A DNA stretch of 64,000 bases from Chiloscyllium plagiosum (GCF_004010195.1 NC_057717.1:106455127-106519126); one strand, 5' to 3'; shown: positions 25,616 through 49,193, counted from the stretch's first letter. Made by a program: numbers and translations. The notes: generated from the letters alone by a model not told the origin.

Positions 25616-25930
25616 CGTAAGTTTGCAGAGTGACAGAAGAGTTTGTGATTGACTTTGTGGTATTAGAGCCCAAGTCCACTTCAGCCAAGCAGGTGTATTC
25701 CTGTCCATCATCTGATCGACTTGCAACGAAATTGAAGACATTTCTCAACCTTTTATCTTCATCCGGAAGACCTGGTTCACCTGTGGAATCTCTCTGGACA
25801 ATCTCACTCCCTCTCAGCCATGTGAGAATGAGTTTGTTGTTTGGATAGACTCTTGGGCCAATGCACTCCAGACTATATGTTCTGTTAATCTCCAGTACTT
25901 CAGGGAGTAATGTAATGCTTATCTCTCGAT
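25616..25930 (-). CDS. Gene A exon 3, Ig domain D2
   Basis: ttttcatag acceptor, gtaagt donor, 315 nt open frame NREISITLLPEVLEINRTYSLECIGPRVYPNNKLILTWLRG...DDGQEYTCLAEVDL...LQTY, resembling ICAM/VCAM D2. Absent from the ORF track because it has no internal start in frame. Confidence 0.92.
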
Positions 25931-26678
25931 CTATGAAAAATAGTTAACAGAATTCTTTGAAATAATAGGTCTCTGAAAACTCCAGTTCTACTCTTGTTTA
26001 CTTTCAACATATCTATCTTTCATTCCATATATAAATAGTCCTTGTGTGCAGTAAAGTTTATCCCAGCCTGTGCCTGGCCCATCAAGCAGTGATCAAATTC
26101 TTTTTCATGCATCATGCTCTACACTATGGCAAGAACATGGAGTTGGGATTCTGATTTAATAGCACTAAAATGCGCACTGTTTTCAATAACAACATATAAA
26201 ATTGTTGCTGAATCAAACCATAAAATGATACGACAAAGGAGGCAATTCTGTTGAGCAATCTTCTCCATTCCCTCCAATCGATTCTACTAACCAGTTCAAA
26301 CCCCACACAGCTGTCAATTCTCCTTCTTCAACATGGTTCCAGTTCTCCTGCATATTTTTAGTTCAAGTGTTTATCATTCATCTTAATGTAACCTTAGGCC
26401 AGGAAATACATGAACTCCTGCAGCAACTCACCAAGCTCCTTCATGAGCTCCCCCCCCCCCCACATCTGTGGCCACTACCATCAGGAAGGGCAAGGGCAGC
26501 AGAAACATGGGAGCACCACAACCTACAGGTTCCTCTCCAAGCCATTCACTATCCCCCCAACGCCTCATCTTCATCAGACTGGTGAGTTTTGGCATTCATA
26601 GTTGGTTGCAATTGTATAATCAGCCAAATCTCACTTTACCCTGTGCTTTGGTGCTGTGTTTGACTAAAGTTAAACACT

Positions 26679-26819
26679 AGGAGAAAGTGAGGACTGCAGA
26701 TGCTGGAGATCAGAGCTGGAAAATGTGTTGCTGGAAAAGCGCAGCAGGTCAGGCAGCATCAAAGGAGCAGGAGAATCAACGTTTCGGGCGTAAGCCCTTC
26801 TTCAGGAATCCTTCAGGAG
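26679..26819. mobile_element. Penelope-derived short element with 15-bp target-site duplication (TSD)
   Basis: ctaaagttaaacact at 26664-26678 and 26820-26834; hammerhead-like motif on the minus strand. Confidence 0.8.
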
Positions 26820-26884
26820 CTAAAGTTAAACACTGCACACAATAAAACAGCAAATTACTGCAGATACTCGAATCTGAACTGAAA

Positions 26885-28700
26885 ACAATAGACAATAGGT
26901 GCAGGAGTAGGCCATTCGGTCCTTCGAGCCAGCATCACCATTTATTATGACCATGGATGATCATCCACAATCAATATCCTGTTCCTGCCTTATCCCCATA
27001 ACCCTTGACTCCACTACCTTTAAGAGCTCTATCCATCTCTTTCTTGAAAGTATCCAGAGACTTGGCCTCCACTGCCTTCTGGGGCAGAGCATTCCATACA
27101 CCCACCACTCGCTGGGTGAAGAAGTTTCTCCTCAACTCTGTTCTAAGTGGCATGCCCCTCATTTTTAAACTGTGTCCTCTGGTTCGGGACTCACCCATCA
27201 GCGGAAACATGCTTCCTACCTCCAGAGTGTCCAATCCTTTAATAATCCTATACGTCTCAATCAGATCATCTCTCAGCCTTCCACACTCAAGGGTATACAA
27301 GCCCAGTCGCTCCAATCTTTCAGCGTAAGACCTCGTGAACCTACGCTGCACTCCCTCAATAGCCAGAATGTCTTTCCTCAAATTTGGAGACCAAAACTGC
27401 ACACAACATTCCAGGTGCGGTCTCACCAGGGCCCTGTACAGCTGCAGAAGAACCTCTTTGCTTCTATACTCAATCCCTCTTGTTATTAAGGCCAGCATGC
27501 TATTGGCTTTCTTCACTGCCTGCTGTACCTGCATGCTTGCTTTCATTGACTGATGTATAAGAACACCTAGATCTCATTGTACTGCCCCTTTACCTAACTT
27601 GACTCCATTTAGGTAGTAATCTGCCTCCCTGTTCTTGCCACCAAAGTGGATAACCACAAATTTATCCACATTAAACTGCATCTGCCATGCGTCTGTCCAT
27701 TCACCTAGCCTGTCCAAGTCACCCTGTATTCTCCTAACGTCCTCCTCACATTTCACCCTGCCACCCAGCTTTGCATCATCAGCAAATTTGCTAATATTAC
27801 TTTTAATATCTTCATCTATATTGTTAATGTATACTGTAAATAGCTGTGGTCCCAGCACCGAACCTTGTGGTACCTCACTGGTCACCGCCTGCCATCCCGA
27901 AAGGCAGCCGTTTATCACTACTCTTTGCTTCCTGTCAGTTAGCCAATCTTCAATCCAAGTCAGTATTTTTCCCCCTATATTATGTGTCCTAATTTTGCTC
28001 ACTAACTTCCTATGTGGGACTTTAACAAAGGCTTTCTGAAAGTCCAGGTACATTGCATCCACTGGCTCTCCCTTGTCCAGCTTCATAGTTGCATCCTCAA
28101 AAAATTCCAGAAGATTAGTCAAGCATGATTTCCCCTCCGTAAATCCATGCTGACTCTGATCTGTCCTGTCACTGCTATCCAAGAGAGTCGTAATTTCATC
28201 TTTTATAACTGACTCCAGCATCTTTCCACCACTGACGTCAGGCTAACTGGTCTATAATTCCCTACTTTCTCTCTCCCTCCCTTCTGGAAAAGTGGGACAA
28301 CATTAGCCACCCTCCAATCCACAGGAACTGATCCTTAATCTATAGAACATTGGAAAATAATTACCAATGCATCCACGATTTCTGGAGCCACCTCCTTACG
28401 TACCCTGGGATGCAGACTATCAGGTCCCGGGGACTTATCAGCCTTCATACTTAACAGTTTAACCAACACTATTTCCTGCCTAATATAAATTCCCTACAGT
28501 TCATCCATTACCCTAGGTCCTTAGCCACTATTACATCTGGGAGATTGCTTATGTCTTCCCCAGTGAAGACAGATCCAAAGTACCTATTCAACTCTTCTGC
28601 CATTTCCTAGTTCCCCATAATAAATTCACCCATTCCTGTCTTCAAGGGCCCAATTTTAGTCTTAACCATTTTTTTTTCTTTTCTCATACCTAAAAAAGCT
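26885..28700 (-). mobile_element. CR1 LINE 3' portion (same family as 1-990)
   Basis: ORFs 27574..28221 and 26971..27546 carry RT motifs and the GYGDKAGTGY C-terminus. Confidence 0.93.
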
Positions 28701-28990
28701 CACTATTCCTCATTTCCCCTTCCCCCACCTCACCCCAGCTCCAACCTTCCAGTTCAGCACTGCCCTCATGACCTGTCCTACCAGCCTATCTTTTTTTCCA
28801 CCTATCCACTCCACCCTCCTCTCTGACCTATCACCTCCATCCCCACCCCATTCACCTATTGTACTCTCTGCTCCTTGGATGCTGCCTGACCTGCTGTGCT
28901 TTTCCAGCACCACTCTGATCCAGACCCATGGAGAGAAAAACAAGCTAACTTTTTGAGACGAGATGACTCTTCATCAAAACTGAAGTGAAG

Positions 28991-29072
28991 TGTGGAGAGG
29001 GCAGCATTTATGTGCAGGGGGTGGGTTGGAGTGTGGAGAGGGCAGCATTTATGTGCAGGGGGTGGGTTGGAG
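28991..29072. repeat. Exact 41-bp tandem duplication
   Basis: tgtggagagggcagcatttatgtgcagggggtgggttggag twice. Confidence 0.9.
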
Positions 29073-31305
29073 TGCTGGGGGAGAAAGGGTGTTGATCGTT
29101 CAGATTAGGTGATTGGAATATGAGAAAGGCAGAAGGATGGGGTGCTTAACTGCCAGGCTGGAAAGAACAGACAGGCCCACTGCGGGGGAGGGGAGGAGAG
29201 GGGAGAGAGTGACAGAGAATGTAATCAGCAAAACTAAAAGAAAGGAAAAGAATGGGTTCACAATTTGAAGGTGCTGAATTCAATACTGAATCTGAAAGAA
29301 CTGCAGATGCTGTAAATCTGGAACAAAAACAGAAGATGCTGGAAAAGCGAGGCAAGATCAAAGGAAGAAGACCAATGGCATTCTCTGCTCCTCCAGGGCA
29401 AGTGCCACACTCTTCTCTCTGCTACTTCACACTCACTCTAACTCTGCTATAGCACACACCTTCCTCCCAGGCTCATGCTCTGCCACTCTCTCGAATGCTT
29501 GCAACAACCTCCCTCACTCTCTCTCAGTTCCAATCTTCCAGACTATGCATTGTGGCTTCTGTCATGCTACTCACTTCATCGGGACACCGCACCTCCTTTT
29601 GACACCTCACCCCCTCCACAATACCCCACAATACCAGCACAAATAGTCGTGCGATCTGATTTCACCTGTCACATGGTGCTGAAATGGGACTGACATAGCG
29701 CATTGCCAAACAGCAAGATGTGTGTCCCTTGGCTGAGGGCTGCTGACCAGCAAGTCAAACTGCCTGCTTGTGTGACTGCTGTAATTGCCACTGAAAGGCA
29801 GGCCAAGTCATAGATGCTGTGACCATGTAGACAGACATGAAGTGAGTGAGCACTAAATGAGCAAGTGAGCAGCCCTGAGACACAACCTGGTCCAGTCTAT
29901 CAGCTGGGTGCCTCAGAGTGTCCCTGCTACAGCTTTTCAATGTCAGTACGTTCTGCTATGCAAATCTGAACTTCATGGGCTGCCTGAAAGTGTATCAGAG
30001 AGGTGCCTGTCTCCTGTCTCCATCCTGTATCTGCTGGTTACCTGTTCCTTCTTCAAGCTGTGGGGTGACCACATCTAAAAAGTGCCTTTCACATTATTCC
30101 AAACTTGTGGAAGCACTATTGTGCTTCTAGCTGACTCTCAAACTCTCAAACTCAATGTTTAAACTGCTCCTTGCGGATGTGGACAGTGGTGTCTCATACT
30201 TCCTACCTACTGCAAGGTGTACAACACATGGGACAGAGCTCCCCTGCTACACCTTTGGTTAACAATCAGAGAGAACAGGGTGGCACTTACACTGACAGTG
30301 TGAAGAAGGTTATCGACCTTCTCACTACATTGCTGTGTACCCCTGCAGGTGGCAGAGAGCTACTTTAACCTGGGTGACAGTCTTGCTCCAGGCTGGTATG
30401 GTCCGGTGCCACAGTCTCCACTACTGGTCAGGGGGTAAAGGAAATCCTCCCTTTGTACCACCCCTCCCAACAGCACCTCCAGGTCCTTGCCTCCAAAGTG
30501 CATGCCAATGTCTGCCTGTCTGCTAAGGCCAGGACAAATATCAGGAACCAGGCAAGGCAGCTTCAGACTTACTGAGTTTGTCCAGGTGCACAAAGGGCTT
30601 TTAAAGATGGCAAAGAGAAAGTGTGGACTGCAGATGCTGGAGATCAGAGTTGAAAAGTGTAGCACTGGAAAAGCAAAGCAGGTTAGGCAGCATCCGAGGA
30701 GCAGGAGAGTCAAAGTTTTGAGCATAAGCCCTTCATCAGAAAAATTCACCAGGTCTCATGGCAAATAAAAACTTCAAAAAGCACAACACAACTTGCACAG
30801 AGCTAAAAGTATGTACAGTTCACTCCCATATGTTTCTACAGGTTACCGGTTATAGGAAATAAAATTTGTCACAGTAAGAGTAGCAAGAACCTTCCATTCA
30901 ATGTCTCACAAACCATTCTGGTTCACTTACTAATGTCCTTCATGAAGAAAATCTGCCATTTTACCTGATCTGGCCTGCATGTGACTCCACACCCACAGTT
31001 TTGTGGTTCACTTATATTTTACCTCTGAAGTGGCCTCTCAAGGAACTCAGTTCAAGGGCAACAAATACTGGCTGAGCCAGTAATGCCCTCATCCAATGAA
31101 GGAATATTAAAACCACGTGACTGTCAACCTGTGCAGGTGCTGAGTATGAACCCATTTCGTACTAATGCAGTCCAGTATCTCAGCTCACATGCTGCAGCAT
31201 CTGGTTGCAAATCATGGAAACTTCTTACAGTCTAAACTATTCCACACCACCTTTTACCTACTTTATGTTTCCTATACAAATATGGAAATGAGAGTTTTCA
31301 CTTAC

Positions 31306-31572
31306 TGTATACTGGGACATTCGCTGTCTTCTCCTTCAGCTCAGAGATACACATCACAGAACATGCTGGTGTTAAATCCCACTGCTGGACAATTGGGAAA
31401 TAGTCATTGTACCAAGTAATGCCCTTTTTTCTGTGAAAGTTTACCCCTGATTTATATTCCACATTTATTGTTGGTTTTGGACATGTTGTGCTGCAGTTCA
31501 TCGCGATGGAACCTCCAAATTCCACGGCTGGGGGGTTTACATCGATTGAAACTTCAAATCCAGTTACAGTGG
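31306..31572 (-). CDS. Gene A exon 2, ICAM-type N-terminal Ig domain D1
   Basis: ttcttggcag acceptor, gtaagt donor, 267 nt phase 1-1. FEVSIDVNPPAVEFGGSIAMNCSTTC...INVE...CSVMC...VY has the four-Cys CxxxC/CxxxC pattern of ICAM/VCAM/MAdCAM D1. Confidence 0.9.
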
Positions 31573-31829
31573 CTGCCAAGAAAACAAACCACAGTAAATA
31601 CTGAGACATACAACCCATTTGAGTCAAGATCATTGGAGCTGATGTGAAACCAGCCCAGTAAGTAGGCTTCTTTTAAAACAAGACACCTCTTTTACGCAAA
31701 TAACAGGAGCTTAGAAATTTACTGTATAGAAGGAAAACACTTGACCCATCAAATCCCTACCAGCTATAAAGTGCTACCTGACCTAATCTGTAGCCTCAAA
31801 GATTACAGTGAATATCCAAATATTGAGAA

Positions 31830-32110
31830 TTTCTTTTCATGGGATACGGGCATCACCGGCAAGACCAGCGTTTGTTGCCCATCCCTAACTGTCCTTGAAC
31901 AAGTGGCTTGCTCAGCCACCACCCAGGGCAGTTGCGAGTCATCCACATTGTTGCAGGGCACGAGTGGCTTGTAGTTTAGAATGATGTGTCAATCCGCTAA
32001 AGGACAATAATGAATCAGATGAGATTTTGTAACAGTTAATGATAGTCTGATTGTCGTCATCATTAAAGCTGTACTTCCAATTTGGGATTTTGCTGAATTT
32101 AAATTCCATT
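31830..32110 (-). mobile_element. Deu/SacSINE-like SINE fragment (related copies near 30900-31105, 41410-41735, 58410-58880)
   Basis: Shared aaccacattgctg...gacattagtgaaccagatg core and a tail shared with the LINE 3' ends at 47290 and 51770. Confidence 0.6.
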
Positions 32111-32139
32111 GGTTTCCACAGGAATCCACATCCAATCAA

Positions 32140-32460
32140 GGGTGGCACGGTGGCTCAGTGGTTAGCACTGTTGCCTCACAGCACAGGGATCCAGGTTTGA
32201 TTCCCACCTCAGGTGACTATGTGGAGTTTGCACATTCTCCCCATGTCTGCATGGATTTCCTCCGGGTGCTCCGGTTTCCTCCCACAATCCAAAGATGTGC
32301 AGGTCAGGTGAGTTTGCCATGCTAAATTGCCCATGGTCTTAGATGCATTAGTCAGGGGTAAATATAGGGTAAGCGTCTGAGTGGGTTACTCTTCGGAGGT
32401 TCAGTGTGGACTTGTTGGGCCAAAGGGCCTGGTTCCACACTGTCGGGAATCTAATCTAAT
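32140..32460 (+). mobile_element. HE1-like V-SINE
   Basis: tRNA head, gtggagtttgcacattctcccc V-domain and aatct tail. Confidence 0.85.
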
Positions 32461-33089
32461 CCCAAGAACAGTGGCTGTCTGGATTACTCAGCTGATGACA
32501 CCACTTCACCAACATTTCCCCTTCTGCCTCTAGCCAGTAAATTCCAGACCCCACCAGCCCCACCTGGTGAAAATCTTTCTATACAACTCCCCTTTAATCC
32601 TTTCACAAATTATATATCTATTCCCCACATTACTAACTTCTGTTAAGTGAAATAGATCCTTCCTATTCAATCTAAATGGCCCCTCATAATAAGGGGCACC
32701 TCAAATACATTTCCTTTCAGCCTCTCTGCTCCAAAGAAAATCATCCCAGCTTATCCAATATCTCTTCACATTTATAATTCTCCGCCTTGACAACTCCCTG
32801 TAAAACCTCTCTGAACACTCTTGAGTGCTATCACATCTTTCTCAAAGTGGCAGATGTGGGTACTGCAGATGCTGGAGATCAGAGTCAAAATTAGAGTGCT
32901 GCTGGACTCCTGATGAAGGGCTTTTGCCCAAAACGTCGATTTTCCTTCTCCTCACGATGCTGCCTGACTGTTGTGCTTTTCCAGCACCACTCTAATCTTG
33001 ACTCACTGAATTAATGGTTTAGTGTTAATACCACTAGACCATCATCTCCTCTAAAGGTCTCACTGTTCCTCTAGAATTCTCTGTATCCT

Positions 33090-34625
33090 ATCTACAGGAA
33101 TAGTGCCAGAAGACTGGAGGATAGCAAATGTTGTTCCCTTGTTCAAGAAGGGGAGTAGAGACAACCCTGGTAATTGTAGACCAAGTAAAAATCACACAAC
33201 ACCAGGTTATAGTCCAACAGGTTTATTTGGAAGCACTAGCATTTGGAGCGCTGCTCCTTCATCAGGTAGGTGCAGTGCTATGAAATCTAGTGCTTACAAA
33301 TAAACCTATTGGAGTATAACCTGGTGTTGTGTGATTTTTAGATTGAACACCCCAGTTCAACACCAGCACTCCAAATCAATTATAGACCAGTGAGCCTTAC
33401 TTCAGTTGTGAGTAAAGTGTTGGAAAGGGTTATAAGAGATAGGATTTATTATCATCTAGAAAGGAATAAGTTGATTAGGGATAGTCAACATGATTTTGTG
33501 AAGGGTAGATTGTGCCTCATAAACCTTATTGAGTTCTTTGAGAAGGTGACCAAACAGGTGGATGAGGATAAAGCAGTTGATGTGGTGTATATGGATTCAG
33601 TAAAGTCTTTGGTAAGGTTCCTCACGGTAGGCTATTGCACAAAATACAGAGGCACGGGATTGAGGGTGATTTAGCGATATTGAACAGAAATTGGCCACCT
33701 GAAAGAAGACAGAAGATGGTGGTTGATGGGAAATGTTCATCCTGGAGTTCAGTTACTAGTGGTGTACCACAAGGGTCCACTGTGTTGGGTCCACTGCTGT
33801 TTGTCATTTTTATGAACGATCTGGATGAGGGTTTAGAGGATGGTTTAGTAAATTTACGGATAACACTAAAGTCGGTAGAATTGTGGATAGTGCCGAAGGA
33901 TGTTGTAGGTTACAGAGGGACACAGATAAGCTGCAGAGCTGGGCTGAGAGGGGGCAAATGGAGTTTAATGCGGAAAAGTGTGAGGTGAATCACTTTGGAA
34001 GGAGTAACAGGAATGCAGAGTACTGGGTTAATGGTGAGATTCTTTGTCATGTAGATGAGCAAAGGGATCTTGGTGTCCATATACATAGATCCCTGAAAGT
34101 TACCCCCCAGGTTGATAGGGTTGTTAAGAAGGCATACAGTGTGTTAGCTTTTATTGGTAAAGGGATTGAGTTTTGGATCAATGAGGTCATGTTGCAGCTG
34201 TACCAAAGTCTGGTGCAGCTGCATTTGGAGTAATGTGTACAGTTCTGGTCACTGCATTATAGGAAGGGTGTGGAAGCATTGGAAAGGGTTCAGAGGAGAT
34301 TTGTGGAGGGAAGGTCTTATGAGGAAAGGCTGAGGAACTTGAGGCTGTTTTTGTTGGAGAGACATAGTTTTAAACTAAAGGGTGATAGATATAGGGCAGA
34401 TGTCAGAAGAGTGTTTCTTTACTCAGAGAGTAGTAGGGGTGTGGAACACACTGCCTGCAACAGTAATAGACTCACTAACTTCAAGGACATTTAAATGGTG
34501 GATTGGATAAACATATGGATGAAAATGGAATACTATAGGTTAGATGGGCTTCAGGTTGGTTTCACAGATTGGTGGAACATGGAGGGCCGAAGGGCCTGTA
34601 CTGCGCTGTAATGTTCTACGTTCTG
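33090..34625 (+). mobile_element. CR1 fragment with a nested Penelope-derived insertion (about 33185-33378)
   Basis: RT motifs; the insertion is flanked by duplicated aatt(g/a)tagacca and has inverted termini. Confidence 0.88.
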
Positions 34626-34944
34626 TTATCATTTACTCCATTGCCTTATTTGTCTTCCCAAATGAAAATGTTTCTCTTTGAAAAGCCTTCTCAGAACCCA
34701 CTCTGTGCTAAGGTTTCGATTTTCTCCCTTCAAGGATGCCAGGTTGCAGAGGATCAGAGATGCAAGCACCAGAATCTGAATATCCACCCATCTCCTTCCA
34801 CTTCAGAAAAACCAGCACAGTTGAACAAAAAGGACCTATCACCTCCATCCCCATCCCCATTCACCTACTGTACACTATGCTACCTTCTCCCCAGCCCCCA
34901 CCCCCCTCCCATTTATCTCTACACCCTGGAGGCTCCCTGTCTCT

Positions 34945-34980
34945 ATTCCTGATGAAGGGCTTTTGCCCGAAACGTCGATT
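34945..34980 (+). ncRNA. Minimal hammerhead ribozyme motif (Penelope type, second family)
   Basis: attc-CTGATGA-a-gggc-tttt-gccc-GAA-ACGT-C-gatt; GUC cleavage triplet; short stem I. Confidence 0.55.
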
Positions 34981-35707
34981 TTCCTGCTCCTCGGATGCTG
35001 CCTGAACCGCTGTGCTTTTCCAGCACCACTCTGATCTAAACCCTGAACAACAAGGACAGCAGAGTCACAGGAGGGAGTTGGATGGCATGGGTACATTTTA
35101 TACAGGATTATACTTGAAGACAATCAACATGTTATGTCGTGGTGAATTATGTTCAGCTGATACTGACCCACAGGAAACGTTATTTCTTGAATAGGAAAGA
35201 AAACTTTTCTTCATAAATGGCCAACTTGTAATTAGTTATTTTAGTTCCAGACAAATTGAAAATGAAAGATCCAGTGTTGAACCGCTCTTCCTTTCCGAGC
35301 GGTCTAGCAACGCACATGATGAAAGATAATGGTGACTGTTAAATATAGGGGTAGACCGAAGCATTAGATCAGATTGCAGCAAACTGATACCATTAACTTA
35401 CCAATTTACAAGGATTGATTTGAGTTATGTGAATGATGCAGATCTCTGTATACGACTATATTTATTTAATCTGTACTTTCCTTAACATTAGTTAGAAGAA
35501 AGTGTGAAACAAAGCCTTTTTTTTATTTCCGGTTGTTAAACTGAAACCAACTAATACACGAGGAAATCGGTAACGGCAAATGTCTTGTTGGAAAAGCCAA
35601 CAGATATCGTTTTTACTGCACCGATGTAGTAAACCTATCACAATACAATACTACTTCAGTCTATGTAAATGTTAAACATTACTCATATTTTAAAATGCTT
35701 TACTTGC

Positions 35708-35774
35708 CTGTTACAATGAACAGCAACTTGAAATGCCAAATACATTCAGCCAGTGAAGTTAGTCTCGAATCCAT
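35708..35774 (-). CDS. Gene A (ICAM/VCAM-like) exon 1, signal peptide MDSRLTSLAECIWHFKLLFIVT
   Basis: ATG at 35774-35772, 22 codons plus 1 nt (phase 1), donor CAG|GCAAGT. Joins exon 2 in frame to give ...LLFIVTATVTG|FEV, a plausible cleavage site. Lies in non-repeat sequence next to promoter-like motifs. Confidence 0.7.
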
Positions 35775-35939
35775 AATTATTAACTTAAAGATGTTTTTAA
35801 AATAATCTGGAATCACACTAATCTTAAAAGTTTCGGAATTTTGAGACTGTAACTAGATCGAGAGGAACTTGCTGACAATTTAACAACTTATTTCCAGACT
35901 AACTCAGAGCACGCTTGAGCCATCTGAGTCCATGTTCCA

Positions 35940-37075: not shown

Positions 37076-40030
37076 GAGTTTCGGGATTGAAGATGATGTA
37101 GCGGTTTGGATCAGAAATTGACTAGCTGAAAGAAGAAAGGTGGTGGTTGATGGGAAATGTTCATCCTGGAGTTCAGTTACCAGTGGTGTACTGCAAGGAT
37201 CAGTGTTGGATCCACTGCTGTTTGTCATTTTTATAAATGATCTGGAGGTGGGCATAAAAGAATGGGTGAGTAAATTTGCAGATGACACTAAGGTGAGTAG
37301 AGTTTTGGATAGTGCCGAAGGATGTTGTGGGTTACAGAGAGACATAGATAAGATGCAGAGCTGGGCTGAGAAGTGGCAAATAGAGTTTAATATGGAAAAG
37401 TGTGAGGTAGTTCAATTAGGAAGCAGTAACCAGAATGCAGAGTACTTGGCTAATGGTAAAATTCTTGGCAGTGTAGATGAGCAGAGAGATCTCGGTGTCC
37501 ATGTGCATAAATCCCTGAAAGGTGCCATCCAGGTTGATAGGGTTGTTAAGAAGGCATAAGGTGTGTAGGCATTTATTGGTAGAGGGATTGAGTTTTAGAG
37601 CCACAAGGTCATGCTTCAGCTGTACAAGACACTGTTAAGGCCGCACCTGGAGTATGGCGTGCAGTTCTGGTCACTGCATTATAGGAAGGATATGGAAGCT
37701 TTGGAACGGGATCAGAAGAGATTTACTAGGATGTTGCCTGGTATGGAAGGAAGGTCTTACGAGGAAAGACTGAGGTACTAAAGGATGTTTTCGTTGGAGA
37801 GAAGATGGTTGAGAGGTGACTTAATCAAGATGTATAAGATAATCAGAGGCTTAGATAGTGTGGACAGTGAGAGCCTTTTTCCTTGGATGGTGAAGGTTAA
37901 CACAAGGGGACATAGCTTTAAATTGAGGGTTAATAGATTTAGGACAGATGTTAGGGATAGTTTCTACACTCAGAGAGTAGTAGGGGCGTGGAATGGCTTG
38001 TCTGCAACAGGAGTAGACTCGCTGACGTTAAGGGCGTTTAAGTGGGCATTGGACATACATTTGGATTATAATGGAATGGTGTAGGTTAGATGGGCATCAG
38101 ATTAATTTCACAGGTTGGTGCAACATCGAGCTATACTGTGCTGTAATGTTCTATGTTCTATGTTCAATTTAATCACTGTCAGACTTTTCTACAGTTTGCA
38201 GTACACTCCCATAACCAATGATCCTAACTTTTCCATTAACTTGTCCATTCAGTTAAACTTTAAAATACTTCATTGTGACTCAACACATAGTTATTTACAT
38301 TGTGAGCAATTTAGGCCCCATATCTCAGGATGGATGTGCTGGCCCTGGGCTGGGTCCAGAGGAGGTTCACAAGAATGATCCCTGGAATGAAAGGCTTAAT
38401 ATGTGAAGAACGTTTGAGGAGTCTGGGTCGATACTCGATGGAGTTTAGAAGGTTGAGGGGGAATCTCATTGAAACTTACAGAATACTGAATGGTCTGGAC
38501 AGTATGGATTTTGGAAAGATGTTTTCATTGAGCAGGAGAGACTGGGACCCAAGTGCACAGCCTTAGAGTAATGACCCTTTCGAAGCAAGATAAGGAAAAA
38601 CTTCTTCAGCCAGAGAGTGGTGCATCTATGGAATTCATTGCCACAGAAGGCTGTAGTGGCCAGGTCTTTGAGTATATTGAAGACAGAGATATATGGGCTC
38701 TTGATTGTCAAAAGGATCTAAGGTTACAGGGAGAAGACATGAGAATAGGGTTGAGAAACCTATCAGCGATGACCGAATGTCAGAGCAGACTCAATGGGCC
38801 AAATGGCCTAATTTCTGCTCCTATGTCATAGAGTCATAGAGATGTACAGCACGGAAAAAGACACTTCGGTCCAACACAGCCAGGCCAACCAGATATCCGA
38901 TATTAATCTAATCCCATTTGCCAGCACCTGTTCTATATCCCTCTAAACCTTTCCTTTTCAAATGCCCATCCAGATACCTTTTAAATGCTGTAATTGTACT
39001 AGCCTCCACCACCTCCTCTGACAGCTCATTCCATACACGTACCATGCTCTGCATGAAAAGTTTGCCCTTAGGTCCCTTTTATATCTTTCCTCTCTCACCC
39101 TAAACCTATGCCCTCTAGTTAAGGACTCCCAGCCCAGGGAAAATACCTTGTCTATTTACCCTATCCATGCCTCTCATGATTTTATAAACATCTATAAGGG
39201 CACCCCTCAGCCTCTAATGCTCCAGGGAAAACAGCCCCAGCCTATTCAGCCTTTCCCTATAGCTTAAAACCTCCAACCCTGGCGACTTCCTTGTAAATCT
39301 TTTCTGCGCTCTTTCAATTTTCACAATATCCTTCCAATAGGAAGGAGACCAGAATTGCACACAATATTCCAAAAGTGGCCGAACCAATGTCCTGTACAGC
39401 CGCAACATGGCCTCCCAACTCATGTACTCAATACTCTGACAAACGTCTTCTTCACTAGGAGAAAGTGAGGACTGTAGATGCTGGAGATCAGAGCTGAAAA
39501 ATGTGTTGCTGGAAAAGCGCAGCAGGTCAGGCAGCATCAAAGGAGCAGGAGAATCAATGTTTCAGGATAAGCCCTTCTTCAGGAAGGGCTTCTTCACTAT
39601 CCTATCTACCTGCAATTCTACTTTCAAGGAACTATGGTCTCTTTGTTCAGCAACACTTCCCAGGACCTTACCATTAAGTGTGTGAGTCCTGCTGTGATTT
39701 GCCTTTCCAAAATGCAGCACCTCACATTTATCTGAATTAATCTCCAACTGCCACTCCTCAGCCCATTGGCCCATCTGATCAAGATCCCGTTGTACTCCGA
39801 GGTAAACTTTTTCGCTGTCCACTACACCTCAAGTTTTGGTGTCATCTGCAAACTTACTAACTGTACCTCTGTGTTCACATCCAAATCATTTATATAAATG
39901 ATGAAAAGTAGTGGACCCCGCACCAATCCTTATAGCACTCACTGACCACAGGCCTCCAGTCTGAAAAGCATCCCTCCACCACCACCCTGTCCTCTACCAG
40001 AATTTGGATGCCAGTTCTGTATGCAAATGT
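37076..40030. mobile_element. Cluster of CR1 fragments (+ 37076-38165, + 38300-38825, - 38830-40030 with a nested short element)
   Basis: RT and C-terminal motifs; the nested element is flanked by cttcttcacta. Confidence 0.87.
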
Positions 40031-42169
40031 CGCATTGTCTGCAATCTAAAACTGGTGCTGTAAAGCACCAAGTTCTGTGATTATTTTTTACTGAACCGGT
40101 CCTGATACAGTATGATATACACATGTCACAGGGAGGCCTTCTGGCTCCGAGCTAGAAAACACTATCCCTGTGCTTTAAGAACTCATCAATATCTGCAATA
40201 TCCATTCCCAGAACCATTGTTGCTTTTGGGGTTTGAATGTAGCTTTAATCAGGCAGATTACAAAGAATTGAAGATCTCTGTGCCTCTGCTGCTGGTTTAT
40301 GTTCTAAAGCTAAAGATGGGTGTTGTTACTTTGGACAGGGTGTTGATCTGCTAAATGGATGTTCATACTACTCACTGGCCTGTCACAGATTCTCCTTCAG
40401 CTGTCCGATAACAGATAACAGATTGACCACAGGTTAGTGCTCAATTGGTTTGCTTCAATGACATCAGGTGAACAGCTTGAGATCTTCAAGTAGTGGTCCA
40501 CAGCTTTTGAGAAATGATGCAAACTCACTCAGGGAACCTCAAAGGACCGGTGGTGCTGGTAACCTCCCTGGTTGAAATAAAGCCTCATTCCTGATGAAGG
40601 GCTTTTGCCTGAAACTTCGATTCTCCTGCACCTCGGATGCAGTCTGTCCTGCTATGCTTTTCCAGCACCACACTATTGACTCTAATCTCCAGCATCAGCA
40701 GTCCTCACTTTTGCCTGGGAGTAATGATGCCTGAATCCTATGTACCTGCAAACTGCTGCTCTTCCCCTGCCTCCATAATAATGGCGGAGTGGGTCACCAA
40801 GGGGTTAAGTCTTACATGGTCTGTGGAGATGTAGGAGATGGGGAGGGCGTTTCTGTAAATCAGTGGGTGGCCTGAACAAGGAAGAAACAGCGAAAACTGT
40901 TAATGCAGGTCTTAGGAGGAATCCAAGCAAAACAAAAATGGGCTTGGAAAAATATTTCCAAAATACAAAAATTGACAAGCAAAGTTTGCATACACGTATT
41001 TGTAAACTTGCAAATTCATTGATCCTGTTTTGATCTAATGATAAAGCCAGCTGTTGCGAAGTGGTGAAGAACAGAACTCACAGCCAAGCCTTTATAAGCT
41101 GCCAAGCTTCAATTCACACATAAAAAGATCCTTCATTAATATAGCACCAAAGTTTCTCAATGTCGTACTTCTATTCAACGTTATAACTTTGGAATTTACA
41201 GAGGCATGCCATATAGCTACAAAAGAAAAGACTCAGTCCTGAATCTGTGTTTACCAATATAATTTATTACCCACTTAATGTTCATGAAATACATCAAATT
41301 CATTATACAATTAAAATACTGCATCTTACAAAATTGAATCAAAACGATCCCGAGAGGTGGTGTGTACGCAGCAATCTTGTGACAAAACAGATGTTAATTT
41401 CATTTTTTTAATCATTCACTCACAGGATGTAGGCATCACTGGCTAGGCCAGCATTTAATGTAGTTCAGAGTCAACCACATTGCTGTGGGTCTGGGGTTAA
41501 ATGTAGGCTAGACTGGGTAAGGATAGCACGTTCCTTTCTTATAGGACATTAGTGAACCAGATGGACTTTTCCAACATTCAACAATGGATTCATGGTCATC
41601 ACTAGAATCTTTATTTCAGATTTTATTTAATTGAATTCAGTCAGATCCACAGCAGGATTTGAACACAGGTTCCCAGAACATTACCTTAGTCTCTGGATTA
41701 ACAGCCCAGTGATAACACCATCAAGCCATTGCCTCCACGTATTGTGTTAATTTGGGTTCAGGTGAGTGAGAATGAGACAAAATACAACCAAAGTAATCTC
41801 TCCCGAAGCAGTTGATATGAGCAGCATCATTGTTAACATCTCATTAATGTAGGCAGCTAGTTGCCTTCTGTTTTCACCATGTTTGTGGTATTGGACTGAT
41901 GTAGGAATTAGCTTTAGCAAGGATATCGAAAATACACAATTTTCACAACTTCTCTGCCTTTCTATCATTTGCCCCATGTTCTCACAATCATTCTGGTCCC
42001 TCCTGTGATCTGGCCAATGTGATCCACTCTCTTATTGCTGTTTCAGTTTCAGCCAGCTCTTCACTCATCCTGAAACAGACCCACAATTCAGGAAGAAGGA
42101 TATCATTTCTGCATAGGGTCAACTTCCTGAAACCACTAAGGCAATTTCTACCCAGTCTTTTCTCACATG

Positions 42170-42625
42170 GTTCAGAAATAATTTACAAGGATGTTGCCAG
42201 GGTTGATGGGTTTGAGTTATAGGGAGAGACCGAATAGGCTGTAGCTGTTTTCCCTGCAGCATTGGAGGCTGAGGGGTGACCTTATAGAAGTTTATAAAAT
42301 CATGAGAGGCATGGATGAGAGACAAGGTCTTTTCCATGGGGTGGAGGAGTCCAGAACTAGAGGGCATCGGTTTAACTTGAAACTGGAAAAATTTAAAATG
42401 AACCTAAGGGGCAACTTTTTCATACGGAGGGTGGTGCGTGTATGGAATGAGCTGCCAGAGGAAGTGGTGGAGGCTGGTACAATTACAATATTGAAAAGGC
42501 ATTTGGATGGGTATATGAATGGGAAGGGTTTAGAGGGACATGGGTCAAATGCTGGCAAATGGGGCTACATTACTTTAGGATATCTGGTTGGCATGGACGA
42601 GTTGGACTGAAGGGTCTGTTTCTAT
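42170..42625 (+). mobile_element. CR1 3' fragment
   Basis: RTRGH...WNELPEEVVEA motif. Confidence 0.88.
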
Positions 42626-44934
42626 GTGAGAGAAAAAGGTTTCTAATTAAATCTATCAACATTAGATACTTGAATATAACCTTTTAAAGAGTCTGTTGTT
42701 AATGTACCTCAACAATGAACTGTTTAATTTTTTCAAAGAAATTGGAAAGACTTCCTGCAAAATGAATCATTTTGATAAGGTAGTGAAGTTTCATTAACCA
42801 AACAAAGATCATGAAAATAACTAAAGTCTCAATGTAGCAAGAAGAAAGATGTAATGAGGCACATGGATGAAAGAAATGCAGAGAGGCTGGATTTCTGCAA
42901 TCCCAGAACCAGAGACCACTGATTCAATGTGATTATCAAAGTAACTAACACTGATTTGAGAAAGCCTAAATGAGTCAGTGTGTGGTGAGGTTGTGAAATG
43001 TGCTGCCTGAGAATGTGATGGAGGTAGATACAGTCATGGATTTATAAAGAGAACTAAAGAAAGGTCATTTTCAGGACAACAGGGAAAGGTAATGGAGTGG
43101 GATGAGCTCAGCTGCTCTTACAGGCAGTGGGCACAGACAAGATGCATCCATTAGCTTCCTTCAGTGCTGCATCTATTCCTCACTTCTATTCAATAAATGT
43201 GAAAAAGGTTCCAACACCTGACCTAAATTTGCCTTTGAGTGTTTCTCTCTGTCCATTTCATGGCAAAGCTTGACATCCTGGTTTGTAGAAGCAGTCACTG
43301 CCTTTCAAACCTGAAAAGCTCAAGTTTCTTAATTCTTTCTTCACACCTCTGTCTGACATGTGAAATGTTTCTTACAGATGAACTCAAGGATCTGCAGGGA
43401 GGATTTGTGACCTGGTCCTGTATCTCACTTGACCATGTCTTGCCAACATCCCAACCAGTTCATATTTCATGTCTTCCTGGACAATTCAGCTCCCCTTCAT
43501 TGGTAGCACAATGCTGTGGATATTGGAAATCTAAAACAAACACAGAGAATGTTGGTGAAACTCAGCAGGTTTGTCAGCATCAGTGGAACGGGTAGCAGAG
43601 TTAGTCTTTCGAATATGGTATGGCTCTTCTTCAAAACAGATCCTGTTGTGTTTCTCTAGCATTCTCTGCATTTGTTACAGCTATTCTTCAGATTGAGATT
43701 CAGGGTACAATGTCAACTTAGATTTGGAGACCAATTGGCTTTTAACATTCCTTAAGATTGGAGTGGGGGAGGGTTTAAGACTAGGGGGCACATTTTTAAA
43801 TTGAGAGGAAAAACATGAGAAGCAACGTTTTTTACGCAGAGGGTGGTTTGTGTGTGGAATGAACTTTCTGAGAAAGTGGTGGATGAGGGTACATTTCCAA
43901 TGTTTAAAAGATATTTGGATAAGTACTCAAATAGGAAAGGTTTGGAAGGATGTGGACCAGAAACTGTGGGATGAGTTTAGTTTCGAATTATGTTTGGCAT
44001 AGACTGGTTGGACCGAAGGTCTGTTTCCGTGCTGTTTGACCCAATGACTTTGTTAAGTTGGAAGATGTGGAGAGCATGCCCAACACTAGAAGGCCAAAGG
44101 GTTGGTCAATGTTGAGGCTGACAGCTCTGGAATTCAGCAAGGTGGTTCTGTTAGAGTCCCAGGGAGCAAGGATATCAAAATAAGTTTACAGTAGAACAGG
44201 CTGAAGGGATTACATTGGCTCCTGGTCTCCTGTTCCTTAGCGATGTGACATAGAAGGCAGGAAGTCCAGATTAGAGTGGTGCTGGAAAAGCACAGCAGGT
44301 CAGGCAGCATCCGAGCAGCAGGAAAATCAACATTTGAGGCAAAAGATTTGCTCTCATGTCTTTCCTCTCAACTTAAAAATGTGCCCCCCCCCCCCATCCT
44401 AGGGAGTGTTAAAAGCCAATTGGTCTCCAAATCTAAGTTGATATTGTGCCCTGAATCTCAATCTGAAGAATGGCTGTAACATCGGGAATCGTCCTGAAGA
44501 AGGGCTTTTGCCCAAAACGTCGATTTTTCCTGCTCCTCGGATACTGCCTGACTGCTGTGCTGTTCCAGTGCCACTCTAACCCTGACTCTAATCTCCAGCA
44601 TCTGCAGTACCCACTTTTGCATAGAAGAAGATTCTGCTAGTGATATAAGTAATAAAGATGCAGATGTGCAAGAGCCAGTCTTAAAAACAAAGGAAGTTCT
44701 TGGAGAGTCACAGCTGGAGAAGGTTACAGAGGTAGAGAAGGAAGACACCATTCAGAAAGAATTAGAGGTGAATATTTGCATAGTTCTCCTGTATCATCTG
44801 CAGAAAGCACAAGACATAGGACAAGAGACCTGCAAACAAACTCAAACCCAGGATATTTTCCAGAGTAGTTAGAAATGCTGTTTTTAAATTGTAAAATCTC
44901 GTTTCATATTCTAGTCCATTGCAGGTTGTTGTGA

Positions 44935-45113
44935 TCATTCCTGATACTGGTTTTCATTGGGAACTTGTGGATTGTTGTTGGGCTTTGCATTTTGTAGTTT
45001 GTATACTCCTGTTTTCTTGACATTCTTGTTCAAGTAATAAATGATGACTCCTGTTGCAAAGATCAATGTAGCCACCACTGATACACTTGCTGCAGCTATG
45101 ATCGTAGCTTTAC
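44935..45113 (-). CDS. Gene B terminal exon, transmembrane plus cytoplasmic tail
   Basis: ttcctcacag acceptor. GKATIIAAASVSVVATLIFATGVIIYYLNKNVKKTGVYKLQNAKPNNNPQVPNENQYQE*. Confidence 0.9.
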
Positions 45114-45454
45114 CTGTGAGGAAGATAGGTGAATGAAATGATTCGTAAAACTGAATTTGCATAATTTTTAAAAAATGAATGAGATTTTTAATGTCCTAAA
45201 GTCATATAGATACTTTGTTCTCTGTGCGTCATGAATATAAATGGAGAAAAACAGTGTGTCAATCTGTCAGATTAGTCAGCTGGGTAGAATGAGAATCACA
45301 GGAGATGCTCAACAGCATGGCCCATCCATAACTGCAGTGTCAGGTGAAATGGAATTAGTCTAATGAAAATGTTCAAAATTGATTGCTGCTCCTGTTTCAG
45401 TGCTTTCTCAGTTACTAATCTCATGATCTGTTTCCACTGATTAGGGATCTGTAG

Positions 45455-45950
45455 TTGCAGATACATTCAATTTTGTTCAAATAGCACACAATCTGTAAGC
45501 AGTCAGTCCATGTAATATTTTATAAATTCCTACTTTGGAAATAGAACCAATCTGCCTCAAGATTGGGATATAGATAGATTCTAAACTCACAGCTTTAATG
45601 CATTGTCTGAGCTGAGATGTCACAATTTTTTATAAAATCTTATGTTATCTTGGAACTATGATTTGAAAGAAGTTCTGGGATTTACATATTAATGAATTGA
45701 AACCTGCATCCCCATTTTAAGTGATTAAAGACTGAACAGCAATCTAAGTTTGTTCAATACATCGCATCAATTGTATGACACTTTGATCTTTTACTCTGAA
45801 CTCTGTGTCCTATGATCCTGCCCGACTAGCTACCAGATGAAAGAGCAGCGCTCCGAAAGCTTGTACTTCCAAATAAACCTGTTGGACTATAACCTGGTGT
45901 TGTGTGATTTTTAACTTTGTCCACCCCAATCCAACACCAGAACCTCCACA
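45455..45950 (+). mobile_element. Penelope-derived element (same family as 63177-63815)
   Basis: Ends in gcgctccgaaagct...ggactataacctggtgttgtgtgatttttaac. Confidence 0.7.
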
Positions 45951-46343
45951 TCATGTCTACTGGTTTAAGAATTCTTTCACTTTCTCTCTGACTTCCTGAA
46001 GTCTCTCTGTCTGTTTACAAAAGTCCACTCTATGATCAAGTTTCTGGACACTTGCACAAACTTTCCCATAAAGGCCTACAACCGTTCATTTCTTCCAGTA
46101 AGTACATGGAGATTGTTTTCCCCCACTGTGTAAGTGAAGTTGTGAGAGGATGAACTTTTAAATCTGTTGGAGGTTGGAATGAAACAGAAGAGACCTTGGA
46201 AAAGGTTTTGTCTGATCTTTCGACTTTGGTGTTAGACAGGCCAAAACTTTCACTTTTTTTTCTGTTTGAAGTAGAGATTTACACCACGGGTTTTTAGTGA
46301 AGTTAAATAATTTAATCAATCAGCTTTGATATTTTTGATTCAC

Positions 46344-46622
46344 CTTCGATGCTGATGTCCACGATCTTCTCTTCAGCTCCAAGTTGGTTCATAACTGAAC
46401 ATTTATATGTTCCACTATTTTTAGTTGTAGCATCAGAAATACAGAGAACTCCTGAAGGATTAATCACAACATTGCTTTGTTTGGGCCATTCCCATTTCAG
46501 TGTTGGGCGTGGATTTCCTTGGTAGTCACATTGTAATATAATAGATTCACCTTTACTGAAATATACTGGAGACTTGGAGACACTTTTGTTATTTGCTAAT
46601 AGAGCTGTAATGATTGGTTTAT
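46344..46622 (-). CDS. Gene B membrane-proximal I-set Ig domain exon
   Basis: ttttacag acceptor, gtgaat donor, 279 nt. YKP...IILQCDYQGNPRPTLKW...SGTYKCSVMNQLG...VDISIEG is homologous to gene A D6. Confidence 0.9.
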
Positions 46623-47289
46623 CTGTAAAACAAAATGATTTGAAATTAGGAGCAATGCAACTTCCAGCTGATCTTGTTAAAAAGCAATGATATCTCAATT
46701 TAATTTAAATGGTTTAATTGTATGTGATGTGCGAAACAATTCTGTGACCAGATTTCTGCCCTTGTGCAAATTGCCCAGAACGGACTCACTGCTTATTCCT
46801 AATGGTGGTGGTGGGGGGGGCTTTGCTGCAGAGCTTTGGGCCACCTGCAATATGGGAATGCAATCTGAATCCTGGTAAACTGGAAAACTCCACAATGATG
46901 CCACCAATATACCACACTGTTATTATGCTTGTTTCTAATTCTCCCCAAAGAAGGCTTGAATTTATTTAACATGGAGTATCTTTAATAAACAACTCAAATG
47001 TCCAATATACAAAAAGTCACTCTGAAGGACATTGACAATAATATAATTAAGTTGAATTGCCTGGGCATTATTTATGGTGAGATGATTATAGGAGGATTTG
47101 TTGTGTAAGGAAGTATGGCCGTGGCTGTATAATTGGAACAGTCTGTAAAAGATGGATTTAGGAAATTTATCAGAGATATTTCAAATATACATCATATCAT
47201 GACTATGATTTTGAATGGTTTACTGAGACTGATTTTCTCGTGTTCGGGGGGTTGAGAAATGAACATGGTGACAGAGAGGGCTTTTTAGA

Positions 47290-47525
47290 AAGCAGATACA
47301 TGGGAACACCACCACCTTCAGGTTCCCCTCCAAGCCATTCACCATCCTGACTTGGAAATATATCCGCCTTCCTTCATTGTCACTGGGTCAAAATACTGGA
47401 ATTACCTTCCTCAGGGCATTGTGGGTCAACCTACAACACATGGACTATAGCGGTTCAAGAATGCAGCTCACCATCACCTTCTCAAAGGGCAACTAGAAAC
47501 GGGGAATAAATGCTGGCCCAGATCC
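47290..47525 (+). mobile_element. LINE (CR1/L2 superfamily) 3' end; related copy at 51770-52015
   Basis: gggaacaccaccacc...ttcaagaa.gcagctcacca...aataaatgctggcc. Confidence 0.65.
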
Positions 47526-48878
47526 CACAAATGAATTTAACTAAAGTATTTTGATGGATTTTATTTAGTTGAGTTTATGCTGCTAACTACTTGCAATTAT
47601 TTTTGTGTGCTTAATGAATAGTTTGGAGTGTTGTAATTACCAATCTTTGTCGTTGCTTATGACATATTCATTGTTATGTTGAGAACATTCTTAGATGTCA
47701 TTTGTTGCTTTATAAATGAGATTTGAGTCAACTATATGGCAGATTAATGTGGAACTTTCCTGTAATGTATTTGTAACAATAAAATGTTGATTAAACGGTG
47801 GCACAATTTTATACACAATGAGTTGTCCAAATTTTCATGAGGTTTTGCTCCCTATTGACTAGACAAATGCTATATTTAAATCAAAATTTCCAAGGTCAGA
47901 ATTTTAAAAAAATTATTGAGGGAATAGCAATCATAAACTTGATGTAAACTGGAAATTTGTACAGTTAGAGAGCAGTCTTTCAATCTCCAATCTGTTCAAG
48001 GCTGCTATGGCAACCTTGTGGAGTGGAGATGGGATGGAATCACTGCATGAGTTGATAATTAACTCACTTGGCTAAGGTTTCTATGAATAATTTTGTGCCA
48101 ACTTACAAGCACGTGTACAACCAAGGAATAAGAGTAATTTGTCAGGCTCTTTGAGCCTGTTCTGCCATTATTAAAATCATCAATGATCTGATTTTAACCT
48201 CAATTCTACCCACTTCTTCATAGGCATAATCATCTTTAATTTTCTTAATAATCAAGAATCTATTTATCTCCACCTTAAAAATAGTGGCAATCCAAAGATG
48301 TTCAGGACAGGTGACTTGGCCATGCTAAATTGCCCATAGTGTTAGATGCATTAGTCAGGGGTAAATATAGGGTAGGGGAATGGGTCTGGGTAAATTACTC
48401 TTCGGAGGGTCAGTGCGGACATGTTGGGCCGAAGGGCCTGTTTCCATATTGTAGAGAATCTAATCACTGTATCTTTCTGGGTGATCAGTGCATTTCAATA
48501 AATACCAGCTCTGTTACCATATCAACCTGGTGAAGTTACTCTATCTCCTGAGTTGAAAGGGATTAATTTTTTGCTTAATAAAAAATTAAAATACTGCAGA
48601 TCCCACAAGTCAAAAATTTAAAAAAAGAAAATATTGAAATACTCAGCAATTGAAGAAGCATTTCAGGAGAGTAAAACTGAGTTAACATTTCAGGTCTGTG
48701 GGTTTTCTGAACTGCTTTGCAGACCTGTATTCCCAGTGATTTTAGGTTTAAAATATCAGCAAAGTCCTTTCAACACAGGAGATTTCAATGTGATCCAAAA
48801 CTTTACTGATAAAGGCCCCTTATTGCTGCAACCAGAACATAGAGATGAATCAACAAAACCTGTTACAATTTAACTTAC

Positions 48879-49193
48879 AGTACGTTTGCAGAGTGACAGA
48901 AGAGTTTGTGATTGACTTTGTGGTATTAGAGCCCAAGTCCACTTCAGCCAAGCAGGTGTACTCCTGTCCATCATCTGATCGACTTGCAACGAAATTGAAG
49001 ACATTTCTCAACCTTTTATCTTCATCCACAGAACCTGGTTCGCCTGTGGAATTTCTCTGAATAATCTCACTGCCTCTTAGCCATGTGAGAATGAGTTTGT
49101 TGTTTGGATAAACTCTTGGGCCAATGCACTCCAGATGATATGTTCTGTTAATCTCCAGCACTTCAGGGAGTACTGTAATGTTTATCTCTCGAT
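48879..49193 (-). CDS. Gene B Ig D2 exon
   Basis: ctttaacag acceptor, gtaagt donor, 315 nt; near-identical to gene A D2. Confidence 0.92.

Follow-up and report, generated by a model that had tools for sequence, protein, structure and literature searches.

Introduction

In the MHC class I family, portions of the same gene have different histories, and gene conversion homogenizes genes within a species (PMC1403747). Gene conversion and domain shuffling among paralogs are on record for the CEACAM family (PMC2832619, PMC8860441, PMC7042247), and mammalian gene pairs have been described that were under gene conversion for more than 100 million years (PMC2720389). The kind of process is well known from MHC class I, CEACAM, and other genes, and is apparently undescribed for the ICAM-like genes of sharks: no paper on gene conversion or concerted evolution in these genes was found in the literature covered, subscription journals lying outside that coverage. 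Here we describe two tandem, same-strand ICAM-like genes, A and B, on the minus strand of a stretch of 64,000 nucleotides from Chiloscyllium plagiosum (GCF_004010195.1 NC_057717.1:106455127-106519126), referred to as the window. The exon for the second immunoglobulin (Ig) domain, D2, is nearly identical in the two genes, and the exons for the N-terminal domain, D1, and for the 3' parts of the proteins are highly diverged.

As in MHC class I, an Ig superfamily immune family is concerned whose genes track the species in one portion and keep old lineages in another, with orthology visible in part only. The family and its domains are different, however, and in the shark genes the ligand-facing head keeps lineages that predate the shark-ray split, the homogenized unit in the window being a single 315-nucleotide exon between unalike introns. 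With the CEACAM genes the shark genes share a tandem arrangement of Ig superfamily adhesion genes and exon-wise exchange (one Ig domain per exon, phase 1-1). In the CEACAMs the ligand-binding N domain is exchanged between paired receptors. In the shark ICAM-like genes, by contrast, homogenization spares the N-terminal domain and affects the second. The mammalian pairs resemble the shark genes in their long-lasting concerted evolution, with paralogs closer to each other than orthologs. Unlike in those pairs, the pattern was present in 10 of 10 sharks sampled and in 0 of 3 rays, and was confined to internal exons.

The D2 exons of genes A and B

The D2 exons of genes A and B are 315 nucleotides each. 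They differ at 19 nucleotides (94.0% identity) and at 7 amino acids in 104 complete codons, in agreement with the hand count of an earlier reading made from the DNA alone (the sequence-only reading). Counted from position 25616 on the plus strand, the mismatches lie at offsets 0, 4, 82, 149, 150, 152, 153, 163, 174, 181, 183, 193, 199, 232, 257, 258, 280, 294, and 302. The same reading put the identity of the two D1 domains at about 28% and called the last Ig domain and the tails highly diverged. Our measurements bear this out, with identities of 26/86 aligned residues (30%) for D1, 40/92 (43%) for the last Ig domain, and 18/52 (35%) for the transmembrane (TM) segment and tail.

Synonymous and nonsynonymous divergence per site (dS and dN) between A and B was estimated by the Nei-Gojobori method (NG86). 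D2 had a dS of 0.119 (8 synonymous differences over 72.7 sites) and a dN of 0.043, giving a dN/dS of 0.36. The corresponding dS and dN values were 1.07 and 0.66 for D1, 0.82 and 0.52 for the last Ig domain, and 1.25 and 0.70 for the TM/tail exon. Synonymous divergence in D2 is, then, ∼7-10-fold below that of the other exons, and the earlier argument that synonymous sites speak against selection alone holds when dS is taken exon by exon. Within D2 the differences are denser in the 5' half (dS 0.17, dN 0.08) than in the 3' half (dS 0.06, dN 0).

The likeness of the two exons had been said to stop at the splice sites, and it very nearly does. A blastn self-match joined 25609-25967 to 48872-49237. 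In a global alignment a weak remnant (∼31/44 nucleotides identical by hand count) persisted in the last ∼45 nucleotides of the upstream intron, and downstream of the D2 donor the likeness ran for ∼13 nucleotides before falling to noise level. Because the introns flanking D2 cannot be aligned beyond these short stretches, the likeness of D2 does not come from a recent duplication of the whole gene. The two D2 exons have a recent common ancestry relative to the genes in which they lie.

Separate histories of D1 and D2

A search of longer proteins with gene A D2 gave 53 proteins at E ≤ 0.001 of 154 candidates, 52 of them from named sharks and rays. Hidden Markov models built from the D1 and D2 domains of the window were used to define tree units, with D2 covering at least 96 of 104 positions and D1 ending no more than 14 residues upstream. 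There were 63 units from 53 proteins plus two window units, and 56 after removal of units identical within a species. The final set held 55 units spanning 15 named elasmobranch species and one further source. Protein model P0014 (XP_043550978.1, "ICAM-5-like," C. plagiosum), which is identical to exon 1, D1, and D2 of gene A, was dropped as a duplicate of that gene, and D2 copies with no adjacent D1 as well as partial copies were left out of the trees.

On the D2 tree, one starred clade each was formed by the units of Scyliorhinus (9), Mustelus (8), Stegostoma (5), Heterodontus (4), Heptranchias (3), and Pristiophorus (3). The Hemiscylliidae (8 units, three species) and the Lamniformes (7 units, two species) also formed one starred clade each, with the species mixed within it; inside the Hemiscylliidae D2 partly follows the paralog. 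The species label changed 19 times on this tree, compared with a minimum of 15 and with 41.7 in shuffles, and the D1-type label changed 11 times. On the D1 tree the species label changed 29 times, and a branch of length 0.83 with support 100/99 separated the B-type units (19) from the rest (36). Sharks and rays stand on both sides of this branch, which places the origin of the D1 types before the shark-ray split. The D2 tree has open forks, and neither its root nor the donor among A and B could be read from it.

Forcing the B-type units together on D2 cost 227.7 units of log likelihood (lnL), with a p value of 7e-68 in the approximately unbiased (AU) test. Four orectolobiform orthologs of gene B, which are a 100/99 clade on D1, could be forced together on D2 at a cost of 51.9 lnL (AU p 3e-6). 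On D1, the units of Stegostoma and of Heterodontus were forced together at costs of 182.6 lnL (AU p 6e-6) and 70.5 lnL (AU p 1e-6), respectively. The groups for the D2 tests were set from the D1 tree, but after the D2 tree had been inspected. On the evidence of these trees and tests, the histories of D1 and D2 are discordant in at least eight shark lineages. The sequence-only reading had predicted such a pattern, with D2 grouping by species or lineage and D1 by paralog; the 55 units display it, and the AU tests reject concordance.

The same discordance is seen in the residues themselves. Paralogs within a species share lineage-specific D2 residues that are absent from their orthologs. In D2, genes A and B of the window are 93% identical in amino acids, compared with 85-87% between gene B and its counterpart in Stegostoma or Rhincodon. 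In D1 the order is reversed, with ∼30-31% between A and B and 63-64% between gene B and the same two counterparts.

Sharks and rays compared

A second search with a sawfish D2 as query gave 64 proteins at E ≤ 1e-5 of 127 candidates and added further ray proteins. The ray proteins were P0039, P0041, P0047, P0052, P0051, P0070-P0075 (with P0072), P0081, and P0085. The comparison set comprised 85 proteins with 72 distinct D1-D2 units, and covered those species that had at least one within-species pair with D1 less than 50% identical. In sharks (10 species, 44 pairs), the D2 identity of such pairs was 84.6-100%, with species means of 87-98%. In rays (Pristis, Hypanus, and Mobula birostris; three species, seven pairs) it was 53.9-68.3%, and the one pair from one further source gave 51%. 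The D1 identity of the compared pairs was alike in the two groups, at 31-47% in sharks and 37-41% in rays. Because the old paralogs of rays keep only ∼55-65% identity in D2 under purifying selection alone, the excess in sharks needs homogenization.

Across species, gene A D2 had an identity of 78-95% to D2 of other sharks and of 66-75% to D2 of rays, and for sharks and rays in general the range was 64-75%. The sawfish D2 (P0039) was up to 79% identical to shark D2 and 69-78% identical to its own paralogs. D2 homogenization thus appears, from the proteins sampled, to be confined to sharks.

A D2 patch in gene B of Chiloscyllium punctatum

Gene B corresponds to protein P0054 (XP_043550979.1, "ICAM-3-like isoform X1," C. 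plagiosum). Comparison of P0054 with its C. punctatum ortholog P0061 at the protein level gave 1/23 differences in the signal peptide, 3/87 in D1, 7/104 in D2, 1/93 in the last Ig domain, and 3/58 in the TM/tail. Of the seven D2 differences, six cluster in codons 44-56, a span of 13 codons (permutation p 0.0003). Six, namely R19, V44, D47, S50, L54, and P55, match the states of other C. punctatum paralogs, and S50 was observed in no other species. In Hemiscyllium ocellatum, a more distant species, gene B retains the C. plagiosum states N47, G50, S54, and V55, and its D2 is therefore nearer to that of C. plagiosum (95%) than is the D2 of the congener (93%). The patch in C. punctatum looks like a transfer from a paralog after the split of the two Chiloscyllium species. 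Codon 4 (S/N) and codons 54-55 (LP/SV, three nucleotide changes) occur in each of their four possible combinations within the Hemiscylliidae.

Extent of the homogenized block

Gene B is without D3-D5, so D2 is the only domain of the block that can be compared within the window. Four long-form paralogs of Stegostoma were 29-63% identical in D1 and 33-45% in the TM and tail. Over the block that starts at D2 and includes the membrane-proximal Ig domain, the same four were 82-100% identical per 30-column window, mostly 93-100%. Judged from these proteins, the homogenized block in long-form paralogs also spans D3 to the membrane-proximal Ig domain. The Stegostoma paralogs differ by single residues in D2, D4, and D6, which makes these separate exons.

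Relationship to the ICAM family

D1 of gene B matched D1 of ICAM-3 (1t0p) with an E value of 1e-4 and ICAM-2 more weakly. The Glu of "IAIEG" in gene B aligns with that of "IALET" in ICAM-3 and "GLET" in ICAM-2, and the Glu of "INVEY" in gene A aligns with that of gene B. In mammalian ICAMs the acidic Glu in D1 binds the metal site of the integrin. D2 of gene A matched residues 89-175 of ICAM-2 (1zxq; E 2.2e-8) and D2 of ICAM-5 (4oi9 and 3bn3; E 2e-6 to 5e-6), and the gene B ortholog P0023 matched ICAM-2 and ICAM-5 over D1-D2. ICAM_N (Pfam PF03921) scores were 37.0 bits for P0023 and 27.0 bits for P0014. Read by eye, the TM/tail translations of both genes contain a hydrophobic stretch, then basic residues, and end in a short tail.

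Mammalian ICAM-1 to -5 (1zxq, 4oi9, and 1t0p) and the shark genes are alike in ICAM_N, the D2 match, the aligned Glu, and one Ig domain per exon, and the shark genes have a putative type I membrane layout. The shark family differs in having many tandem copies per species and two or more deep D1 types. To our knowledge, D2 homogenization has not been reported among mammalian ICAMs. The names given to family members at NCBI are mixed and include ICAM-1-, -2-, -3-, -4-, and -5-like, VCAM-1-like, and hemicentin-like.

Read contigs over gene A D2

Logan contigs of four sequencing runs were placed on positions 22500-32000: X1, X5, and X15 (organism A, three studies) and X12 (organism B). The unique flanks of gene A D2 were found in contigs at 24969-25483 and 25903-26514 in X1, 24969-25517 and 25903-26313 in X5, and 24974-25616 and 25903-26554 in X12. 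These contigs end approximately at the exon edges, as expected if the words of the exon are common to other loci and those of the flanks are not. Contig depth over the D2 exon was greater than over the flanks in all four runs; such depth is no measure of copy number and was not used. Over eight listed pieces, X12 had 168 other letters in 5608 nucleotides (3.0%). Inside the D2 exon, X15 had no other letter at five of six listed places (depth 47-64), and one place showed 13 of 80.3. An X15 contig of 594 nucleotides on the D1 exon of gene A (31306-31575) had zero other letters there and was unlike the window on both sides beyond.

Explanation of the D2 likeness

We consider it highly probable that D2 is kept alike within species by recurrent interlocus gene conversion together with strong purifying selection on the D2 protein. 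The sequence-only reading had proposed recurrent conversion as what holds D2 constant, and the trees, the dS values, and the ray control support it. That conversion recurred over the shark radiation and was recently active in a congener is likewise well supported by the protein comparisons. The companion proposal, that D1 diversifies, stands in the sense that the D1 lineages are ancient and fast evolving, not in that of ongoing positive selection.

Mechanistically, repeated short-tract, non-reciprocal conversion would overwrite D2, with tracts of the size of the exon or smaller; the heads (D1), the last Ig domains, and the tails belong to paralog lineages that predate the shark-ray split. The limit at the exon may reflect an island of homology that sustains itself: selection has slowed the exon and earlier conversions have refreshed it, so that it would still be able to pair, and the introns, diverged and filled with repeats, would no longer be similar enough to do so. 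That the process is conversion and not another form of exchange is inferred, as are the cause of the restriction to the exon and whatever advantage D2 uniformity may bring.

Several points weigh against this explanation. Clustering of the 19 differences in the A-B pair was not significant (maximum chi-square permutation p 0.09), nor was the longest identical run, of 77 nucleotides (permutation p 0.085). A tract of ∼140 nucleotides with one mismatch had been singled out in the sequence-only reading, and offsets 5-148 (144 nucleotides) do contain a single mismatch; in view of the two p values, however, the tract is not statistically separable from the rest of the exon and we do not claim it as a separate recent event. 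The GC content of third codon positions is not raised in D2 (0.42-0.43, compared with 0.28-0.42 in the other exons), and consequently there is no sign of biased gene conversion. All cross-species evidence is at the protein level and comes from gene models, some of them fused, nucleotide sequences being limited to two, and synonymous sites may be under constraint from splicing signals or RNA structure. In Heterodontus, one pair of identical D2 domains may come from two gene models that share the same exon. The last exchange between A and B in this genome was not very recent, to judge by a D2 dS of 0.12, ∼4-fold the 3.0% flank divergence to a relative. Finally, of the two D2 exons, the read-contig comparison covered that of gene A.

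The last point bears on the possibility of an artifact of assembly or polishing, in which the reads of one copy corrected the other and produced a false identity. The contigs do collapse the D2 exon, with the copy-specific letters of gene A partly visible. The two copies still differ at 19 positions, however, and X15 lacked other letters at most of the listed places in the gene A exon. The independently assembled gene B of H. ocellatum has the same B-specific residues N4, V7, N47, S54, and V55, and 10 shark species show the pattern in their assemblies. The exclusion of an artifact is only indirect for the gene B copy; overall we regard it as extremely improbable that the likeness is one. Purifying selection alone would require D2 to be so constrained, synonymous sites included (for example by exonic splicing signals), that it has hardly diverged since an ancient duplication. 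D2 is indeed the best conserved domain, gene B of C. plagiosum and Stegostoma being 85% identical in D2, 64% in D1, and 74% in the last Ig domain, and both the 64-75% identity of D2 between sharks and rays and its dN/dS of 0.36 fit such constraint. Yet the AU tests reject a paralog-wise history of D2, paralogs share lineage-specific residues, and the D2 of old ray paralogs has fallen to 54-68% identity. Together with a D2 dS of 0.12 where other exons lie near 1, and with the patch in C. punctatum gene B, this leaves selection alone a very small chance of being the whole explanation.

Somewhat less improbable, though still unlikely, is an exchange of the ends and not of the middle, in which the genes are recent duplicates of a backbone into which D1, with the 3' exons, was swapped from old lineages by unequal crossing-over or exon shuffling. 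The large tandem arrays of the family would favor such events, and several models seem fused or chimeric (P0001-P0004 and P0057); P0014 joins exon 1, D1, and D2 of the window to 3' exons that are absent from it. The D2-to-D6 block of Stegostoma, at 82-100% identity among four paralogs with different D1 domains and tails, also fits. But both introns flanking D2 are unalike, so that a backbone duplicated recently would not extend past the exon, and in practice such an event amounts to exon-sized conversion. Gene B, moreover, is unlike gene A both before and after D2, and the patch in C. punctatum gene B spans less than the exon.

Recurrent conversion of D2, if correct, has practical consequences. 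Domain-wise concerted evolution hides orthology and misleads naming, and trees of whole proteins would be wrong. Sharks and rays also provide a natural experiment, with the same old D1 types in both groups and D2 homogenized in ten sharks and in none of three rays; the contrast could be used to separate selection from conversion and to ask what confines tracts to exons. For shark immunology, the genes would represent an expanded set of integrin-ligand-like proteins with very different heads on one stalk, for which ligand or pathogen specificity is a candidate function.

A wider reading, which we put forward tentatively and hold to be rather doubtful in its entirety, is that sharks but not rays run the ICAM-like cluster as a germline "variable head on constant stalk" system throughout the selachian radiation. 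Old D1 lineages would be kept apart while D2 (and D3 to the membrane-proximal Ig domain in long forms) is overwritten by exon-sized conversion, with uniformity selected because the stalk of each copy would have to suit one shared partner, be it a cis-dimer, a co-receptor, or a second site on integrins. That rays lack this regime, through loss or from the outset, would then signal a functional change in the family.

Gene organization of the window

The features of the two genes are listed in Table 1. A Pfam scan covered 114 minus-strand stop-to-stop open reading frames (ORFs) of at least 60 amino acids between 11.5 and 56 kb. ICAM_N was above threshold in two of them (31301-31672 and 52789-53085) and Ig/I-set domains in three; the D2 ORFs, each a single exon, gave Ig_3 alone, and this below threshold. 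The exon borders, as read from the DNA, were all of the AG/GT type in phase 1-1 save for the donor after gene A exon 1, where intron 1 begins with GC (gcaagt) and not GT (35702-35707, minus strand).

Table 1. Exons and related features of genes A and B in the 64,000-nucleotide window
Feature	Position	Strand	Observations
Gene A exon 1, coding part, signal peptide	35708..35774	-	22/22 residues identical to P0014 residues 1-22; GC donor
Gene A D1 exon, 267 nt, A-type lineage	31306..31572	-	ICAM_N 30.8 bits (cut-off 21)
Gene A D2 exon, 315 nt, phase 1-1, ICAM D2-like Ig	25616..25930	-	100% identical to P0014 residues 113-216
Gene A upstream intron, last ∼45 nt	25931..25975	-	Sole intronic stretch with residual likeness to gene B (49194-49237)
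Gene A D3 exon remnant	24654..24855	-	Last 67-68 codons only, identical to P0014; first ∼31 codons gone
Gene A D4 exon, 288 nt	22837..23124	-	Borders read; X15 contig covers 22837-23124
Gene A D5 exon, in-frame TGA at 15880-15882	15846..16091	-	Pseudo-exon or skipped exon
Gene A membrane-proximal Ig exon, 309 nt	15185..15493	-	Pfam Ig_3/I-set
Gene A TM and cytoplasmic tail exon with stop codon	12793..12986	-	Tail resembles second half of C. punctatum model P0057
Gene B D1 exon, 264 nt, B-type lineage	52809..53072	-	ICAM_N 36.4 bits
Gene B D2 exon, 315 nt, phase 1-1	48879..49193	-	Translation identical to P0054; tblastn 98% with overhang into intron
Gene B last Ig exon, 279 nt	46344..46622	-	Pfam Ig_3/I-set; matches P0054
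Gene B TM and cytoplasmic tail exon with stop codon	44935..45113	-	Borders read; matches P0054

The signal-peptide exon of gene B had no match of at least 90% within the window. A weak look-alike of this signal peptide lies at 62843-62911 on the minus strand (48% over 23 amino acids, E 0.006), and this piece may be exon 1 of a further upstream paralog or a chance match.

In gene A, the first 31-34 residues of the P0014 D3 domain had no match anywhere in the window. A dispersed short repeat lies directly upstream of the D3 remnant, where the missing codons belong (24654-24972, minus strand), and its portion at 24854-24972 has 13 further matches in the window at 75-82%, a few of them overlapping. 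One contig of X5 and one of X15 had the joint 23124 to 24654 (GT..AG, minus strand), which was absent from X1 and X12. In the D5 exon the TGA replaces a Gly of P0014; the exon is otherwise intact and has good splice sites. The D5 domain is absent from the C. punctatum model P0015 and from the second half of P0057, and that of gene A may be a skipped or dying cassette.

P0014 does not agree with the window beyond D2 in D4 (three amino acid differences), D5, D6, and the tail (41% identity) when compared with the exons at 12793-24855. In the C. punctatum model P0057, an A-like D1 is combined with a tail resembling that of gene A. Either P0014 is chimeric across neighboring paralogs or transcripts truly skip to downstream exons. 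The models P0015 and P0017 share D3 onward, and this, with the 3' part of P0014 being absent from the window, suggested a cassette locus of the protocadherin or UGT1A type with common downstream exons. The idea was rejected for the window genes because each has its own downstream Ig and TM exons and P0054 accounts fully for gene B; it may still hold for other copies in the array.

The introns and the intergenic spacer are full of very high-copy repeats (26621-29156, 30425-30741, 17139-18342/33378-34617, and 1-991/26886-28077), over which the summed contig depths reach up to millions. Reverse-transcriptase ORF fragments occur among them, with the Pfam domain RVT_1 at 27577-28242, and several repeats form inverted pairs inside the window.

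Two positions in the D4 exon of gene A differed between the window and the read contigs. At 22995 all four runs had mainly T where the window has C, changing Ser to Asn in the sense direction, and at 23024 three runs had T where the window has A, changing Ser to Arg; both are the paralog state. They could represent a private allele of the assembled haplotype, a contig of the paralog, or a small conversion polymorphism.

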